Positions 11,726 to 64,000 of a stretch of DNA of 64,000 bases are shown in pieces. The stretch comes from Minisyncoccia bacterium. GTDB lineage: Bacteria > Patescibacteriota > Minisyncoccia > Phycocordibacterales > UBA918. The translations under genes and the position numbers were made by a program. The first letter of the stretch is position 1; the number at the start of each line of letters is the position of its first letter. Below the pieces are notes generated by a model that saw only the letters and a list, made by a program, of their open reading frames with translations, was not told where the DNA came from and searched no databases. The stretch spans positions 6,658 through 70,657 of the forward strand of contig JBGSPE010000011.1 of the NCBI GenBank assembly GCA_041738755.1, written 5' to 3'.

Positions 11726-12859
11726 ATGGCAGTCAAAAAAGGTCCAAAGAAAGCTCCCGTGGTCGCACGAAAGACCGGTGAAAAAAGTGAAATGAATGAT
11801 ATCGCAGAAACCCTGCGCAGTATCAAGACAAAATTTGGTGATGAAGCCATCATGACGCTTGATGAAAGTAAGAAGGTGGATGTTGAAGCTATCTCATCTG
11901 GGTCTATCGGACTTGATGAAGCACTCGGTATCAGTGGTTACCCACGGGGACGAATTATTGAAATCTACGGACCAGAATCGTCTGGTAAGACTACCCTCGC
12001 TCTCCATGCGGTTGCCGAAGCACAAAAGGCTGGTGGTATCTGTGCCTTTATCGATGCTGAACATGCGATGGACCCTGAATACGCTCGAAACCTTGGTGTG
12101 AAGCTTGATGAACTTCTTATCTCACAACCTGATAATGGTGAGCAGGCCTTGGAAATCGTGGAATCACTCGTCCGCTCTGGAAAGCTTGATGTGATTGTCA
12201 TCGACTCGGTAGCGGCCCTTACCCCACGAGATGAAATCGAGGGTGAAATGGGCGCCCACCATGTGGGTAAGCAAGCTCGACTGATGAGCCAGGCCCTGCG
12301 AAAACTCACGGGAATTGTCGCGAAAAGTAAGACGGTAATTATCTTCATCAACCAAATCCGCATGCAGGTAGGAGTGATGTTTGGTAACCCTGAGACTACT
12401 CCAGGAGGAAAGGCCTTGAAGTTCTATACCTCTGTTCGACTTGATATCCGTCGTATTGCCCAAATTAAAAAGGGCGAAGAAGTGGTTGGTGGTCGGCACC
12501 GAGTGAAGGTAGTAAAGAATAAGGTCGCTTCCCCTTTTCGCACCACTGAATTTGACCTTATCTACGGAGAAGGAATTAGTCGTGAAGGAGAACTCTTGGC
12601 GCTCGGAGAGAAATACAAGATGGTGCGTAAGTCAGGAGCGTCATACACCTATCTCCCACCAGGTGGCGATGAGTCCGCTGAAGTGAAGCTTGGACGTGGG
12701 TATGACGCCGCTCGGACTACCCTCCGGAGTGAAAAGAAGCTCCAAACTGAACTCTTGAAGAATATTCGGAAAGCAATGAAAGAAGATATGGCGCCTGCTG
12801 GCCCAACTAAGAGCTCAGCAAGTGATGATGAAGAAGAACAACTACCAGAAGCTGAATAG
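11726..12859 (+). CDS. recA: recombinase RecA
   Basis: Walker [14 protein letters not shown] and conserved RecA core motifs. Followed by a terminator at 12867-12900. Confidence 0.95.
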
Positions 12860-18717: not shown

Positions 18718-18912
18718 TTACTTAGTCTTAAACAGATTAACCAAGAATCTTACAAAATCTGCAGATACGTCTGGACCAAGATCCTCCGCCGGTCTTCGGC
18801 GTCGACGCTGTTTCCATCTTTCTGACCACAATAGGCGATCCTCATATGAAAGACCTACGAGATAGGGACGAATTAACCGACCAGGAGGCATGGGTCTATT
18901 GTCTACTTTCAT
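18718..18912 (-). CDS. small basic hypothetical protein
   Basis: 64 aa, Arg-rich (WKQRRRRRP). A good SD (AGGAG, 8 nt upstream of the ATG) is visible on the minus strand. Confidence 0.25.
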   Translation of the reverse strand: MKVDNRPMPPGRLIRPYLVGLSYEDRLLWSERWKQRRRRRPAEDLGPDVSADFVRFLVNLFKTK

Positions 18913-19042
18913 ACAACACTCCTCAGCATTTTGGTATTGTTTTGACTTTCTGAGCCGAGCTTAGCATATTGCTGCTTAGCTGGATAGGGATGGGTATATA
19001 AAAAGCGGACGGCCCTTTTGGGGCCGTCCGCTTTTTTGTATC

Positions 19043-58898: not shown

Positions 58899-59088
58899 TT
58901 CCAGCTGAAATTACCAGGGCAAAAATAAGAACGAGAATAAATGATGCTTGATCCATATATATGAAGCTTAACGAACTTTCTCTACCATTGCAATCTTGTA
59001 GTTTTATTTTGTAACTCGACAAACGTACGTAAAACCGCTAGTATAGCGTCCACAGAGAAGGGTTGTATCCCCTCTTTGAAAACAATAT

Positions 59089-59161
59089 GGCGGCTATAGT
59101 ATAGCGGTTAGTGCATCGGTTTGTGGTACCGAAAGTTCGGGTTCGATTCCCGGTAGCCGCC
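59089..59161 (+). tRNA. tRNA-His (anticodon GTG) with G-1
   Basis: 8-bp acceptor GGCGGCTA/TAGCCGCC including G-1:C73. Anticodon stem TCGGT/ACCGA with loop TTGTGGT. T-arm GTTCGGGTTCGATTCCCGG. Confidence 0.8.
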
Positions 59162-59304
59162 CTAATGCCCTTGCCTCGCAAGGGAACAATCTAAATAAAG
59201 ATAATTTGGTTCAACTACGTTGGGTTATTTTAGTGCCTATTGTCCGTAGGGGAACCAGAAATGTTTTGAAGTCTTCCCACATGGTGCACACCGATTTTTT
59301 AAAT

Positions 59305-60117
59305 CTATTTAAGAGTTTCAATAAACTCTTTCACATCATCTTCCTTTGTCCGAACTTCATCAGATCGCTTCCAAACCAGATCAAATTGGGAGCGGAGTGT
59401 TTTTGCCAAATCACCACTTTCAACAATAAAACCGAAGCCTTCTTTTCGGGATGAAAGAAAGGCAATTTTATTTCCGTAAATCCAATACCCCATTGAAAAA
59501 TCGATATTATTTGGAGCACTTCTAATCTCACGTTTAAAATCGCTCCCAGCCCCAAGGTATGGATGCTTTTTAAAATTTACTACTTGATTCTCAGGCCAAA
59601 TAGCACGCACCGAAATGTTCCGCTTAATCCTTTCTTGATTATGCTTGCGAAAAAATTCTGGAGAAAGCACATCCACCATGGTTTCAATTGGCCAAAGTGC
59701 TTCTGTTTCAACATCTCGATAGAGCAGCATGTCTTTTAAAACTTTTTCCAAACCATCAGCTGATTCGTAGAGCTCAAGCTTTGGAGATAAGTAGGAGTCT
59801 GTCACTATTTCCCTCACTTGCTTCAATGACTCCCTGTATTGTTGTTCAGCGCTCTCTATCTCGGCTTTGTAATCAGAAAAAATGTCTGCAATTCTATCTG
59901 GATGAATTGGAACAAACCTTTTTACCCCGCTTTGTTGGGTTTCGGTTACCAAGCCCTTTAAAATTAGTCGTTTTAAAACGACATACACTGACGGTCGTGG
60001 AATCCCTGCAGATTTAGCTAATGCGCCGGCACTAACTGTGCCAGAAGAAAGTAATGTTAAATACAAGCGTGATTCTTCAGCAGAAATACCAATTTTCTCT
60101 AAAGATTTTTCGAGCAT
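59305..60117 (-). CDS. TrmB-family transcriptional regulator
   Basis: N-terminal wHTH LEKIGISAEESRLYLTLLSSGTVSAGALAKSAGIPRPSVYVVLKRL and a TrmB-like C-terminal domain. Confidence 0.65.
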   Translation of the reverse strand: MLEKSLEKIGISAEESRLYLTLLSSGTVSAGALAKSAGIPRPSVYVVLKRLILKGLVTETQQSGVKRFVPIHPDRIADIFSDYKAEIESAEQQYRESLKQVREIVTDSYLSPKLELYESADGLEKVLKDMLLYRDVETEALWPIETMVDVLSPEFFRKHNQERIKRNISVRAIWPENQVVNFKKHPYLGAGSDFKREIRSAPNNIDFSMGYWIYGNKIAFLSSRKEGFGFIVESGDLAKTLRSQFDLVWKRSDEVRTKEDDVKEFIETLK

Positions 60118-60233
60118 GTTGTTGTAACACTACAACACTATTTATATAAAGTCTATAATGGCCCAGTATAGCAATACATCTTTCGTGTTTTATTACGGTG
60201 ACAAAGATGTGTTCCACACTCAGGAGAAGTTTA

Positions 60234-60854
60234 ATGAACACGCAAAAAATCGTTATTGGTGATGGCAGCTTGGCAATCTACCGCAAGCCCCAGCCCGCTA
60301 TTTCTGAAGGCGGAAGGATGGCAACACACGCAGAACTCTTTACCGCCAATCTGGGCAAGCCGTTTCCGTGGGGAACACTCCCCCATGACAGCAATGCGCC
60401 TCTGCTCTGGAAAGACCGTCGCGTGGGCTACGGCGGACTGATCCACCATCAGTGGTTCGTTACGTCAGACGGTCGCTTCGGCGGCGCTGACAACGTCCCG
60501 ACTACCGGTCCAGGCGCTCTCCGCAACTCCCTACTGATCAATGGCGGTTGCGGCAGCGAGGCGGAAAACGAGGGCTACGCGGTAGTCGTCCAAACCGATG
60601 ATGCAACCCGACACATGTACCATAAGGTGCAGTTGCATGCCCTCGCGCACGTGGCGGCAGACGGTGGGCATATCATCGTCTCACCGATCCAGAATGGTGT
60701 GGTCTACGTGGGATTTGTCGGCCGCTGCCAACACTGTCCCAACGCGAAGGACATCTCCTTCAAGCAACTACAGGCGGCCTTACCTGACTTTGACTTCAAA
60801 CTTTTCCTTGAATGGGAAAACTGGGGAATCAGCTCAATCAGTCAAGCCGCGTAA
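60234..60854 (+). CDS. protein with a C-terminal NifU/Nfu-like domain, in a GC-rich segment
   Basis: The C-terminus GHIIVSPIQNGVVYVGFVGRCQHCP matches the Nfu G.V.L...G.C.gC motif. GC is clearly above the neighbouring genes. Confidence 0.45.
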   Translation: MNTQKIVIGDGSLAIYRKPQPAISEGGRMATHAELFTANLGKPFPWGTLPHDSNAPLLWKDRRVGYGGLIHHQWFVTSDGRFGGADNVPTTGPGALRNSLLINGGCGSEAENEGYAVVVQTDDATRHMYHKVQLHALAHVAADGGHIIVSPIQNGVVYVGFVGRCQHCPNAKDISFKQLQAALPDFDFKLFLEWENWGISSISQAA

Positions 60855-61060
60855 ATCAACTTACTGCTTATGCAGGCCGTGGTGTATAGAAACATACACC
60901 ACGGTTTTTCTTTTATAAAAATATTTCCCTCGCCTCACTCAGCCACCCCAAACACATTTCCTCAAACTGGTTCCACCCGAGGGACAGTACGTGCCCATTG
61001 GCAAAAGAAAATACTTCCCTTGTGGAAGTATTTTCTTTTGTTAATAGTGGCTAAGAAAGT

Positions 61061-61105
61061 GACCTGCGTCACTTTCGTCCGGAATCGAACGCCGGAGCGA
61101 TGTGC
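61061..61105. repeat. hairpin-pair motif copy 1 (GTGACCTGCGTCAC TTTCG TCCGGAATCGAACGCCGGAGC)
   Basis: A near-identical motif lies at 62060-62103. Confidence 0.6.
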
Positions 61106-61194
61106 GCTTGCAAACAAGTGAGGCGTGTCCCCGCGGCACCAGTTATTTTGTGAGGCATCGAAACAAAATAAGTTAGTGACCGTCAGGACGACTC

Positions 61195-61208
61195 CCCGGT
61201 AGCCGCCC
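61195..61208 (+). repeat. 14-nt direct repeat of the tRNA-His 3' end (CCCGGTAGCCGCCC), candidate attR
   Basis: Exact match to 59148-59161. Confidence 0.6.
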
Positions 61209-61269
61209 GGCAGAAACTCTAACCAGAAAAGCCCTCGTGAGAAGCTAGAACTGGTATACTACTATAGCT

Positions 61270-62016
61270 ATGGAAAGCATTACACCAGAAATTGAAGCTA
61301 AAAAATCACCTTTACATACAGTTACTCCACTGTCGAAATATCTGGCGATGGTTTTGTTTATTTTGCTGCCATTTGTTGGAGGTTGGATTGGATATACCTA
61401 TTCTCAAGAAAAAATAAGTGCAAAAGAACTAACAACAAATCCTGATGAATGGAATCTACCACAAAGTGATGATACTCAATACACTAATGAAATAGCACAA
61501 TTGAAACTATTACTTGCAAAAAAGTCTTTCCCTCAAACTGAAATGTTAAAGCCAGGTGATTTCCTTGGAGCATTTATAATCGAGTCTATAGATTATGAGA
61601 CAGAACGGAGTGGTGATGAGTATCAACATAGAGCAACCGTTAATTTAGTTGGTTCAACTACAATGAAAGGCAAAATACTTATTAGCACTGCTGATATGGG
61701 AGGTTCTGAATCTGGAAATACTGCATACACAATTACATTTCAACCTTCAAGTGAAGATAGTGAAGAAATTCCCTACCTAGAAGAGTTTATTCCCGGCAAA
61801 GATCAAAGTTTTTATATTGCAGGCCAAGAGCAATCTGAAATAGTTCGCAAAATTATTACAGATGCTGGTTGTGACGAAGATTTAACTATTTATTGCGTTG
61901 GTTTTGAGCCGACTAGTTCAGAAGAAGTTGAGATTGCTATCTCAGGGTTTAAATTATATGGCCAAAGTTATGCATCGGGAGTACCCAACCTACCAATTGC
62001 AACACTAGTTGAATAA
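61270..62016 (+). CDS. hypothetical secreted/membrane-anchored protein
   Basis: 248 aa with an N-terminal TM helix, flanked by the two hairpin-motif copies. Confidence 0.4.
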   Translation: MESITPEIEAKKSPLHTVTPLSKYLAMVLFILLPFVGGWIGYTYSQEKISAKELTTNPDEWNLPQSDDTQYTNEIAQLKLLLAKKSFPQTEMLKPGDFLGAFIIESIDYETERSGDEYQHRATVNLVGSTTMKGKILISTADMGGSESGNTAYTITFQPSSEDSEEIPYLEEFIPGKDQSFYIAGQEQSEIVRKIITDAGCDEDLTIYCVGFEPTSSEEVEIAISGFKLYGQSYASGVPNLPIATLVE

Positions 62017-62059
62017 TTGGAACATAAACACTCATGTGGTTTTTTGTTAACGGAAGAGG

Positions 62060-62103
62060 AGAAGGTGTCTAGCGTCACTTTCGTCCGTAATCGAACTGCG
62101 GAG
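62060..62103. repeat. hairpin-pair motif copy 2 (GGTGTCTAGCGTCAC TTTCG TCCGTAATCGAACTGCGGAGC)
   Basis: Shares AGCGTCACTTTCGTCCGnAATCGAACnnCGGAGC with copy 1. Confidence 0.6.
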
Positions 62104-62269
62104 CTATATTTATAAACGAGCCAGGGTGTAAGCAATATCAAAATAATGATCTTACGTACATATTTCAACTGACGCCTAACGGATTCTGTGTGTCCTAATT
62201 TTAAAGTTATATTTTAGACTTATTTTTTAGTTACTATTGTCCTTTATGGAACCCTGATATAATTTTTTA

Positions 62270-62965
62270 ATGAAACATAATAAATTCATAGGTTGGTGCC
62301 TAATACTTGGATCAATAGGGGTATTTATTCCATACACAATATTAACGATAATATTTAACTACCCCGACATTCTTCGCCTACCAGGTGGAGATATTCTCAC
62401 ACAATTTCATGCCGGAGGATCAACTCTTATTTTTACTTGGTTTGCTTTTGCCTTACTTGGAACACCTTTACTTTTAGCCTACATCCTTATTGGCCAGAAA
62501 TATGAAGCCCTAAATCCTCATATTCGATGGATTACCACCATAGGAGTTCTTTCAGCAATTTTACAAATGATTGGTCTGTTACGCTGGGTCTTTGTTGTTC
62601 CAGTATTAGCACAAAACTATATCGACGCTACCACTAATGAACTACGTGAATCAATTGTCATAGTATTCAATGCAGTACATCAATTTGGTGGAGTGTTACT
62701 TGGTGAACATCTAGGGCAACTTTTTACTATAATTTGGACCGTCGGGATTTCATTAGTGCTTTATCAGACACAAGTAATCAAAAAGTGGGTGGCTGTGTTT
62801 GGGGTAATCACCTCAACAATTTACTTTTTGGCGCAAGCAGAACTTTTTGCTACCGTTATACCTAATTTTCCCTACTTCGGTTTAGCAGGATTCATCGGTA
62901 GCACTCTTTGGCTGGTTTGGTTAATTATTTTGGGGGTCATATTTATTAAAGCTAATAAACATTAA
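62270..62965 (+). CDS. hypothetical polytopic membrane protein
   Basis: 231 aa with six TM helices. AT-rich. Confidence 0.4.
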   Translation: MKHNKFIGWCLILGSIGVFIPYTILTIIFNYPDILRLPGGDILTQFHAGGSTLIFTWFAFALLGTPLLLAYILIGQKYEALNPHIRWITTIGVLSAILQMIGLLRWVFVVPVLAQNYIDATTNELRESIVIVFNAVHQFGGVLLGEHLGQLFTIIWTVGISLVLYQTQVIKKWVAVFGVITSTIYFLAQAELFATVIPNFPYFGLAGFIGSTLWLVWLIILGVIFIKANKH

Positions 62966-63053
62966 TCTTACTTCTTCAAACAACCCAAAACATAAATTTT
63001 GAAACTGATTCAGCTCAGGAGGTCAATTCGTACCCTGATAGGAATCGTTGACT

Positions 63054-63668
63054 TTAATCAATTTCAATTACTGTTGTAGCAGGTAGTTTTTCTTTTATCA
63101 GTTCTAGGTCGGATGTTGCATATTCATTCCCTTTCAAATTAAGGATCTTGAGGTTAGAGAGGTTACCTAGCTCAAGAGGAAGTCCGGTAATGCGATTGTT
63201 AGAGAGATTCAGTTCCTCAAGCAGTTTTAACTGACCTATTTCAGCTGGCACTCCGGTGAACTGGTTGTTGGATAGGTCTAATACCTTGAGATTTTGCAGA
63301 AAGCGTATTTCTGCTTGCAATGAACCAGTAAGTTTGTTGTTCGATAGATTAAGTGTTTCAACCGTAGTTTCTTCAAATACGTACTTCGGTGTTTCAACAA
63401 GCCCCCTTCCACTTAGGTTCAGTGTCAATCCATTACTGACGTCAGGCTCAGTTTCATAAGGGTTAGGATTTATTTCTGATTCACTAAGCTCAGTCTCACT
63501 ACTATCACTCATTTCTGCCTCGATGGTTTCGGCACTACGGTAGGGTATATCTTTTGTCATCTGTTGATATGAAATTAAACCAACGCTGACAATAACTACT
63601 ACGAGGATGATTATTTTAAACATAGTATCTATTGTAGTACTTTGTAACGAAATAATATACACACTCAC
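63054..63668 (-). CDS. leucine-rich repeat (LRR) protein with an N-terminal membrane anchor
   Basis: Tandem LxxLxLxxNxL repeats (LNLSNNKLTG..., LDLSNNQFTG..., LNLSNNRITG...). Confidence 0.6.
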   Translation of the reverse strand: MSVYIISLQSTTIDTMFKIIILVVVIVSVGLISYQQMTKDIPYRSAETIEAEMSDSSETELSESEINPNPYETEPDVSNGLTLNLSGRGLVETPKYVFEETTVETLNLSNNKLTGSLQAEIRFLQNLKVLDLSNNQFTGVPAEIGQLKLLEELNLSNNRITGLPLELGNLSNLKILNLKGNEYATSDLELIKEKLPATTVIEID

Positions 63669-64000
63669 GACATCTAACCTCTCAAAGCAATTCTAACGTC
63701 TCCTACGGTATTACCCAATTTATTATTTACTTGCTCTAACTTTTAAAGTGTTTTTCTATACCAGGTATATCTAATAAATCTAATTTCTAAATGCAAGTGG
63801 ATTTAAAATAAATTAATCAAAGCATAATACAGTGGTACTGCTGGTACAGCTATCTGAGAAACGAAGAGTAAAAGTAAGTAATATTTCTTTTCTGGCAGAT
63901 AAAACCTCCTAAAGCTTGGGAGCGTTGAGTACTCTGCAAAAATCTTCTCAAAATTCCAAAAAGCTGAAAAAGTAATCTCAGCCATAATGAGTGCAACTGT

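Follow-up and report, generated by a model that had tools for sequence, protein, structure and literature searches.

A probable recombinase-less TrmB/Nfu cassette between tRNA-His and a structured element in a Minisyncoccia bacterium

The window analysed here is a stretch of 64,000 nucleotides (64 kb) from a Minisyncoccia bacterium of the candidate phyla radiation (CPR; assembly GCA_041738755.1, contig JBGSPE010000011.1, positions 6,658 to 70,657), and the system under study lies immediately downstream of its sole tRNA gene, tRNA-His(gtg), as detected by ARAGORN. This gene, whose G-1 was placed at 59089 by reading the sequence, is followed by a divergent gene pair encoding a TrmB-family regulator and an Nfu-like protein, by a structured element of ~210 nt that we term E (60997-61208), and by further small gene-bearing segments (Table 1). 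The 14-mer CCCGGTAGCCGCCC, made up of the 3' strands of T-stem and acceptor, C73 and a further base, occurs exactly at 59149-59162 and again at 61195-61208. An initial annotation of this DNA had recognized the repeat (placing its first copy at 59148, one position too early) and had taken the two copies for the attL and attR of a decayed islet of about 2 kb that had lost its integrase. The exact repetition is far above chance: with up to two mismatches allowed, the expected number of matches is 0.18 and in 100 shuffles it never came to three, and the only other match, at position 12205 within recA, has two mismatches. Its interpretation as the two borders of one inserted unit did not withstand comparison with related metagenomic loci, which are numbered L001, L002 and so forth.

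In five of these loci (L087, L073, L066, L050 and L025) E sits directly 3' of tRNA-His and ends in the same kind of repeat. The window copy (60998-61208) matches that of L087 with an nhmmer E-value of 2e-43 and 85.8% identity over 212 nt, and is 79-83% identical to the other four. More generally, 12 of the 48 tRNA-His loci that have enough downstream sequence repeat the 3' end of their own tRNA-His exactly, over 12 nt or more (up to 22), at 150-220 nt downstream. The repeat measures 19-20 nt in the relatives (CGATTCCCGGTAGCCGCCC), and a change from TT to CTC has cut it to 14 nt in the window, where the identity stops. Since the second 14-mer is the 3' end of E, and E stands free of cargo after tRNA-His in at least 12 relatives, the 14-mers are not the attL and attR of the TrmB/Nfu insert; in essence, the repeat is part of a conserved element unrelated to the cargo.

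The DNA that was actually inserted extends from 59163 to 60996 (1,834 bp), between tRNA-His and E. At the right junction (60996/60997) the window reads ...GTACGTGCCC followed by ATTGGCAAAAG, the hairpin and the remainder of E, and the relatives read tRNA...GCCGCCC followed by ATCGGCAAAAAG, the hairpin and E. Because the relatives have E directly on tRNA-His, the alignments show the TrmB/Nfu DNA to be an insertion relative to this arrangement. The left junction is ...CCGCCC/TAATG and the right one ...GTGCCC/ATTGG, so that they have only GCCC (~4 nt) in common, which fits a serine recombinase better than the core duplication left by a tyrosine integrase. An insertion without recombinase at the tRNA gene had thus been proposed correctly, and what changes are its boundaries and its probable mechanism.

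Table 1. Features at and downstream of the tRNA-His gene in the window (strand "." where no strand applies).
Feature	Position	Strand	Basis or remark
Sigma-70-like promoter match TCGACA-17-TAGTAT	59016-59044	+	5' of tRNA-His; consensus match only
tRNA-His(GTG) with genome-encoded G-1	59089-59162	+	ARAGORN 59090-59162; Rfam tRNA 60 bits, 59090-59161
Cassette left end, class "F3": TAATGCCC, hairpin, AATCTAAATAAAGATAATTTGGTTCAACTA ... TTTTAGTGCCTATTGTCCGTAGGGGAACC	59163-59262	.	Compared across loci
TrmB-family winged-helix regulator, 270 aa	59305-60117	-	PF01978 59.6 bits (cutoff 25.6), 2.6e-16
Operator-like palindrome CATGTTGTTGTAACACTACAACAC at TrmB start	60115-60138	.	Nearly invariant in five diverged loci
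Nfu-like protein, 206 aa	60234-60854	+	NifU domain PF01106 26.3 bits, cutoff 27
Intrinsic-terminator-like hairpin 3' of Nfu-like gene	60874-60907	+	
Right end, "type B" end motif, orphan ~27-aa peptide GHVLSLGWNQFEEMCLGWLSEAREIFL plus stop	60913-60996	-	Motif comparison
Bidirectional terminator-like hairpin, 22-nt arms, opens E	60997-61045	.	In relatives directly 3' of tRNA-His
E core; 5' strand AGTGGCTA ... CCGGAATCG	61046-61208	+	Pairs with 3' strand ending in second 14-mer
orf61270, 248 aa, membrane-anchored, next cassette	61270-62016	+	Without family match
Decayed partial second E copy	62036-62125	+	nhmmer E = 1e-7
Leucine-rich repeat (LRR) gene	63054-63668	-	Adjoins decayed type-A motif
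Decayed type-A motif AATTCTAACGTCTCCTACGGTATTACCC, further cassette boundary	63668-63716	+	Resemblance by sequence inspection; as search query matched only itself

The type of enzyme that could have been involved is indicated by two end motifs, termed type A and type B, of which we counted ~45 occurrences in the fetched loci, all on the tRNA strand and all 3' of tRNA-His. Type A ends in ...GTTCGAACATCCTCTACGACGTCGCCC at the junction, and its opposite strand encodes (M/L)LGDVVEDVRTVFERLGDTSIYIPTF; variation among the copies is mostly synonymous or conservative, after which random sequence and a stop follow. In L028 the motif is contiguous with a 568-aa large serine recombinase (LSR) resembling XisF and CcrB, which scores against the NCBIfam models for both, and forms its C-terminus; as judged from the translations, this shows type A to be an LSR C-terminal tail. 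The LSRs of L011, L012, L014, L036 and L038 abut tRNA-His, and their last codons are antisense tRNA-His. The tails read ...ELILSW followed by GGYRESNPNFRYHKPMH in these tRNA-abutting loci as opposed to ...LIHTW followed by GAVVEDVRTVYE... in L028, and it is this difference at the junction from which we conclude that the recombinase gene spans attP. Genes crossing the attachment junction in this manner lie, in stored orientation, at 1470-3119 in L011, 471-2063 in L012 and 2291-3997 in L028; the attP arm carries the codons of the native tail (GDVVEDVRTVFE...IYIPTF), and after integration the open reading frame (ORF) ends in antisense tRNA-His codons. We know of no described serine recombinase with an attP-spanning gene, an arrangement that is known for SSV-type (Sulfolobus spindle-shaped virus) tyrosine integrases, and our literature search returned nothing pertinent on serine recombinases at tRNA genes in the CPR. 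Only C-terminal remnants of LSRs are left in L027 and L043, which represent decay in place. A side observation concerns L012, in which the recombinase gene beside tRNA-His is flanked by inverted repeats of ~150 bp (~140-290 and ~1850-1998) whose starting point coincides with the end of the tRNA. The far copy runs in frame into a native-like tail (GHLYDSARTYFQAKLG plus stop); this suggests an inversion or an invertible segment.

The window cassette ends in a type B motif, the peptide of which follows the pattern G(H/R)(V/L)LxLGWNQ(F/L)E..CL.WL..AR..F plus stop. Eight of 12 copies stop at a shared position or only a few codons away from it, and in three more the frame is interrupted by an internal stop. 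By analogy with type A, this right end would represent an attR scar carrying the C-terminal tail exon of a recombinase, and both the type B motif and the window cassette would have been moved by an LSR. The left end belongs to a class (F3) that contains an inverted copy of the right-end motif, and F3-like ends are also seen after tRNA-His in L090, after type A in L071 and after type B in L032. Joining the right end to the left end gives a circle junction of GGGACAGTA-CGTGCCC-TACTGTCC with a palindromic core. A remnant of an LSR was sought by tblastn in the 142-nt left spacer, and the antisense-tRNA tail was all that appeared. The same cassette was also recovered in an independent assembly, the 1,803-bp Logan contig L001 from SRR28170465, which is identical to the window and ends at 59183 and 60985, that is, within the left-end hairpin and within the type B motif and not at the 14-mers; these end points may reflect branching of the assembly graph at sequences common to several cassettes. 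A look-up of exact protein matches gave no record for YibE/F and, for the Nfu-like protein, a 1.8-kb Logan contig and nothing else.

We therefore favour, with a probability of roughly 0.6, a scenario in which the TrmB/Nfu DNA is a single recombinase-less cassette that was inserted between tRNA-His and a pre-existing E, probably by an LSR, with the 14-nt repeat representing the 3' end of E. Small cassettes of this type would have accumulated as an array downstream of tRNA-His, the TrmB/Nfu cassette entering by site-specific recombination at the ...CGCCC end of the tRNA, on the tRNA side of the existing E. The lost enzyme would probably have been an LSR like those that stand against tRNA-His in the relatives; with a gene crossing attP, integration would place its body at the tRNA side and a C-terminal tail exon of ~27 aa at the far junction, and it is in such an orphan tail motif that the window cassette appears to end. 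Several observations weigh against this scenario. The window yielded no recombinase at all, be it an LSR with Resolvase, Recombinase and Zn-ribbon domains or another type, and a tblastn search of the 64 kb for LSR homologues returned none. The type B tail is fused to a recombinase in none of the fetched loci, the longest in-frame stretch being 70 codons without similarity to LSRs, and for this reason the attribution of the window cassette to an LSR rests on the analogy with type A. The F3 left end is unlike the left ends of LSR-bearing elements, and the palindromic core of the reconstructed circle could be used by a tyrosine recombinase as well. The closest syntenic genomes, L010 and L012, carry neither E nor the cassette, the empty sites being known from more distant relatives, whose YibE/F is 55-63% identical. 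Finally, the 17-point gap in GC content between the Nfu-like gene (0.567, z = 3.1) and the TrmB gene (0.395, z = -1.5, unremarkable) speaks against the recent arrival of both genes in one transfer from a single donor.

A wider view of the locus identifies the region after tRNA-His as a hotspot. The genes for NrdA and NrdB (80-85% amino acid identity), MscL and YibE/F and the tRNA-His gene are syntenic in L010 and L012, but the DNA beyond the tRNA is different throughout. Scanning metagenomes with a YibE/F alignment yielded 80 loci, most of which have the divergent pair of YibE/F and tRNA-His; a convergent tRNA-Leu(gag) lies 0.7-9.6 kb beyond tRNA-His, so that the variable region is bounded by two tRNAs, with tRNA-His serving as the integration target (the attB side). 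The order in the window is tRNA-His, TrmB/Nfu cassette, E, orf61270 cassette, decayed E, DUF4386 gene, LRR gene and decayed type A. Empty sites, the check proposed in the initial annotation, were found in distant relatives only: in L057, where a homologue of orf61270 (78% amino acid identity) starts 100 nt past tRNA-His behind a leader homologous to window 61225-61269, and, in the form of tRNA-His followed by E, in L087, L073, L066 and others, L073 continuing after E with the same flank as L057. The flank AGCATTTTGAAGTAGATTTTATAGG likewise stands directly after the tRNA in about ten loci and after E in L066, L071 and L043. Cargo of other arrays includes APH kinases, GNAT, glyoxalase, HAD, SOUL, DUF3800, a histidine phosphatase and an IS30 transposase. 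The gene orders show a cassette-array architecture downstream of tRNA-His.

The region 61209-64000 is compositionally deviant, with a GC content of 0.365 and a tetranucleotide z of 3.4. In L010 (1009-2241, stored orientation), a low-GC methyltransferase gene follows tRNA-His, and after it come a type A motif and an AIR-synthase-like gene of high GC content; this mosaic of GC values resembles that of the window. Among 59 loci with tRNA-His, the window counted, 11 break off no more than 250 nt past the tRNA, the contigs that stop at 0-250 nt being L016, L017, L024, L029, L034, L037, L064, L067, L068, L075 and L084; this is consistent with strain heterogeneity or repeats at the hotspot breaking assemblies. 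A further exact direct repeat, the 13-nt TTGGTTCAACTAC at 59206-59218 and 61649-61661, has one copy in the conserved left end of the cassette and the other within orf61270 (and present in the L057 homologue too); with ~0.09 such repeats expected in 3.5 kb, it is probably due to chance.

Element E merits consideration in its own right. It opens with a terminator-like hairpin; then come a strand complementary to the tRNA 3' end, broken up by a hairpin, the conserved core and, last, the direct copy of the tRNA end. The terminal copy follows the tRNA variant of each genome (CCCAGTAATCGCCC in L056, CCCTG in L070, TAGTCGCCC in L066), and the same core subtypes recur after tRNA-Trp (L002), tRNA-Ser(tga) (L082) and tRNA-Leu(gag) (L085), where both the inverted and the direct terminal copies fit those tRNAs and the element ends in an exact 18, 21 and 15 nt of them, respectively. 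The terminal helix of the family is thus an inverted plus a direct copy of the adjacent tRNA 3' end, from T-loop to discriminator. The sites at tRNA-Trp and tRNA-Ser lie at 12118-12297 in L002/L003 and at 18830-18917 (oriented) in L082, and those after tRNA-Leu(gag) are found in L025, L033 and L057 in addition to L085. RNAalifold on ten copies gave a structure of 32 pairs, 18 of them with compensatory changes, in which 91% of cells pair; the number of double-sided pairs (18) compares with 8.5 +/- 2.0 in shuffles (none of 500 had as many) and 3-7 with slid partners. All 16 of 16 copies form a terminal helix of 14-20 Watson-Crick pairs, which on the tRNA-sense strand has the topology of an acceptor/T-stem minihelix with G-1:C73, the acceptor part being imperfect in several copies. 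Both strands fold far better than their own shuffles to the same extent (mean z about -4.1; -4.14 vs -4.09, p = 0.67).

Several identities for E were considered and discarded. A preference for the tRNA-sense strand, apparent from raw minimum free energies (21 of 29 copies, p = 0.002), is gone once each strand is compared with its own shuffles, and the terminal helix alone has no strand preference. A second tRNA or tmRNA at 61046-61208, suggested by eye from a T-loop-like GTTCGATTCC and an acceptor-like GGCGGCTA/TAGCCGCC, was negative with both ARAGORN and Rfam. More broadly, Rfam returned no match to E in the window, where E-values as high as 10 were admitted, or in seven relatives, where the limit was 1, and no promoter is evident at E. 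The 16-mer GTGTCCCGCGGCACCA had ten matches in viral contigs, none with the context of E by nhmmer, and these are chance matches. Signal recognition particle RNA, RNase P RNA, 6S RNA, Y RNA, group II introns, the IS110 bridge RNA and IS200/605 ends misfit in length or motifs and have no associated proteins nearby. The literature searched offered nothing pertinent on tRNA-like elements downstream of tRNA genes, and the E family is apparently undescribed. It may be (a) an RNA that mimics tRNA through an acceptor/T-stem minihelix with G-1:C73 and is released from the tRNA trailer by processing, (b) a folded-DNA site for recombination or landing, by which the attB of the serine-recombinase cassettes is regenerated, or (c) a miniature element whose long duplication is templated by the target. 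Tentatively, E could be a new class of tRNA-associated structured element (~150-210 nt) that moves among His, Leu, Ser and Trp tRNA genes in the CPR and, together with the attP-spanning recombinases, defines a tRNA-anchored, integron-like system of cassette capture; we regard this broader proposal as distinctly less probable than the cassette scenario.

Three other explanations of the repeat and its surroundings were weighed. According to the initial annotation, a single islet of ~2,046 bp, made up of the TrmB gene, the Nfu-like gene and 340 bp of non-coding tail, was integrated by an exchange of the tyrosine-integrase type and later lost its integrase. An exact 14-nt repeat of the tRNA end does bound the segment, the tRNA is intact, and the content past it varies among relatives; however, the distal 212 nt with the repeat are a separate element found without cargo after tRNA-His in at least 12 relatives, and the cargo has end motifs of its own at 59163 and 60996, which it has in common with other cassettes. 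The absence of an integrase stands, with none in 59163-61208 and none among the 10 window ORFs of integrase-like size. It also counts against this mechanism that a tyrosine integrase turned up neither in the window ORFs that were checked nor next to tRNA-His in the ~90 related loci inspected. The arrangement of tRNA-His followed directly by E in relatives largely disproves the single islet, to which we assign very little probability. The composition check proposed for it gives a divided answer: the segment as a whole is not deviant (tetranucleotide z = 0.25), a value that is uninformative because a low-GC and a high-GC gene cancel each other, and the Nfu-like gene on its own is an outlier in GC. 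Overall, the earlier interpretation is partly supported.

A scenario akin to integrons, in which the mobile unit is the cargo plus E, E acts as a folded attC-like site, the tRNA 3' end takes the role of attI, the recombinase is encoded elsewhere and the 14-nt repeat is a functional cassette boundary, appears improbable to us. It draws on the imperfect palindrome of E, with ends that pair in 16 of 16 copies and internal hairpins that covary, on the alternation of cargo and E (at +41, +2912 and +5799 in L071, and similarly in L085, L089, L080, L055 and L043), on cargo that consists of typical accessory genes, and on the lack of a favoured strand after composition control (z = -4.1 for both), which is compatible with structure at the DNA level. 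Yet E occurs alone and cargo-free directly after tRNAs, and where cargo precedes E (the window, L071, L089, L080, L043 and L055) the E hairpin has a type A or B motif directly in front of it; as this reproduces the junction of tRNA and hairpin, insertion between the tRNA and E is the simpler explanation. In addition, the window cargo differs from a promoterless ORF in comprising two divergent genes with their own promoter region, no integrase of the integron type stands next to the tRNA (upstream lie the genes for YibE/F, MscL and ribonucleotide reductase), and no core of the GTTRRRY type was seen on reading, no systematic scan having been run. Equally doubtful is the notion that E never moves and is a vertically inherited tRNA trailer, the basal stem of which grew through quasi-palindromic copying of the tRNA 3' end, such that the repeat would be a mutational by-product and presence or absence the result of deletion between the repeats. 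In its favour stand a perfect palindrome of 2 x 29 nt in L069, which has the terminator loop at its centre and extends 14 nt into the tRNA, and the inverted and direct copies, which always fit the local tRNA (Leu, Ser and Trp too); moreover, neither a promoter nor a recombinase is associated with E. The distribution of the element speaks against it, since the same core subtypes lie beside different tRNAs and in hosts with different types of tRNA-His, one tRNA type goes with several subtypes, several copies occur within single arrays, and presence and absence are bounded exactly by the repeats with identical outer flanks.

As stated in the initial annotation, a TrmB-family regulator is encoded on the minus strand between the 14-mers, where the Nfu-like gene and 340 nt of non-coding DNA also lie; its scores against NCBIfam equivalog models are far under the cutoffs, and the regulator is a member of the family and not an orthologue of the sugar-sensing TrmB. 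It is 64-66% identical to TrmB proteins whose genes are paired with Nfu-like genes in L002, L005, L006 and L007. The Nfu-like gene, which starts at an ATG behind AGGAG, is as distinctly GC-rich as was claimed, being the most GC-rich 621-bp stretch of the window. Its product (AlphaFold model with a pLDDT, the predicted local distance difference test, of 90) combines an N-terminal domain of ~120 aa, for which no solved relative was found, with a C-terminal CxxC domain of the Nfu type. The cysteines of the CxxC motif, C165 and C168, are invariant in 37 homologues, with the score for the Pfam NifU domain just under its cutoff; residues ~120-195 match the C-domains of CnfU, HIRIP5 and NFU1 with probabilities of 0.97, 0.80 and 0.77, all with E-values above 0.01. 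On the basis of these models the cargo may have a regulator-controlled function resembling that of an Fe-S carrier.

The palindrome CATGTTGTnGTAACAnTACAACAC overlaps the TrmB start codon and is nearly invariant in the intergenic regions of the window, L002, L005, L006 and L007; this palindrome (CATGTTGTnGTAACAnTACAACAC / CATGTTGTNGTAACANTACAACAC) is likely an operator of the regulator, and we infer that TrmB represses the Nfu-like gene. The divergent pair recurs in four other genomic contexts in CPR genomes, among them between topA and relA (Nomurabacteria, Paceibacterota), beside rpmG, and beside KAP-NTPase, Rep and resolvase genes; it is a conserved, self-contained divergent module. Homologues of the cargo occur in metagenome-assembled genomes (MAGs) of Nomurabacteria/Paceibacteria, and those of the Nfu-like protein also in MAGs of Alphaproteobacteria. 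Scanning genomes with the 3' half of the tRNA likewise led to CPR bacteria. The pair adjoins genes for a Rep protein and a small resolvase in L007 (9192-11165) and an IS30-type transposase gene in L002 (4098-5015), and since neither E nor a type A or B motif lies near these pairs, the module seems to move by at least two routes. In two of these other contexts, those for which the GC content was computed, the Nfu-like gene is not markedly GC-rich, and in L002 and L005 it lies near the genome background, which suggests that the window copy was replaced from a GC-richer donor.

By itself, the islet is an ordinary decayed insertion without recombinase at a tRNA gene; its context is less ordinary. 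The tRNA-His 3' end of this CPR lineage anchors arrays of very small recombinase-less cassettes of accessory genes, which appear to have been built by LSRs whose genes straddle attP, and this amounts to gene collecting in the manner of staphylococcal cassette chromosomes (SCC) or integrons in organisms with tiny genomes and a little-known mobilome. Element E combines strong covariation with the lack of an Rfam counterpart, and would constitute a new functional class if it is an RNA mimic or a recombination site. In practical terms, E is a caveat for island-finding tools that call attL and attR from repeats of tRNA ends. The TrmB-family regulator with its invariant candidate operator and the two-domain Nfu-like protein form a module conserved in the CPR and some Alphaproteobacteria.

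Compared with known systems, E resembles several kinds of tRNA-like RNA (the tRNA-like domain of tmRNA, the histidine-specific viral tRNA-like structure, Y RNA/YrlA) in that its terminal helix reproduces the acceptor and T-stem of tRNA-His, including G-1:C73, and in that a hairpin emerges between its acceptor and T-stem parts on the tRNA-sense strand; it is unlike them in having neither an Rfam match nor an ARAGORN tRNA or tmRNA, and in the imperfect acceptor-like helix of several copies. As a structured imperfect palindrome at cassette boundaries it recalls the attC sites of integrons, without an integron integrase or R-box present. Where a long duplication next to the end of a tRNA gene is concerned, the closest parallel is offered by the casposons, which generate a 15-bp target-site duplication at the 3' end of tRNA-Pro (PMC5137440). 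There, as with E, a long direct duplication (14-22 nt) at the tRNA 3' end flanks the inserted element, but E is ~210 nt long and non-coding, has an inverted target copy, and shows no Cas1, PolB or terminal inverted repeats.

The array as a whole shares with tRNA-linked islands and cis-mobilizable elements, which depend on tyrosine integrases, an intact border tRNA, a downstream repeat of the tRNA end, the lack of an integrase and tandem accretion; it differs from them in that the repeat belongs to a 210-nt non-coding element and the insert junctions have only ~4 nt in common. In staphylococci, the LSRs CcrAB and CcrC integrate SCCmec and psi-SCC elements at the 3' end of rlmH/orfX. The SCC islands and the arrays described here have in common an LSR acting at the 3' end of one housekeeping gene, tandem accumulation downstream with many units lacking a recombinase, accessory-gene cargo and short junction repeats; here, however, the target is a CPR tRNA, an attP-spanning gene leaves its last ~27 codons at the distal junction, and the cassettes are far smaller (0.6-3 kb), with no recombinase found in the 64-kb window. 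In SSV-type viruses (Fuselloviridae) attP lies within the integrase gene, which is cut in two when the virus integrates into a tRNA gene. The recombinases of the CPR loci are serine and not tyrosine enzymes, only their C-terminal ~27 aa are exchanged, with antisense tRNA-His as a substitute tail, and their hosts are bacterial and not archaeal; in both systems, nevertheless, the recombinase ORF crosses attP and part of it is stranded at the other end of the element.

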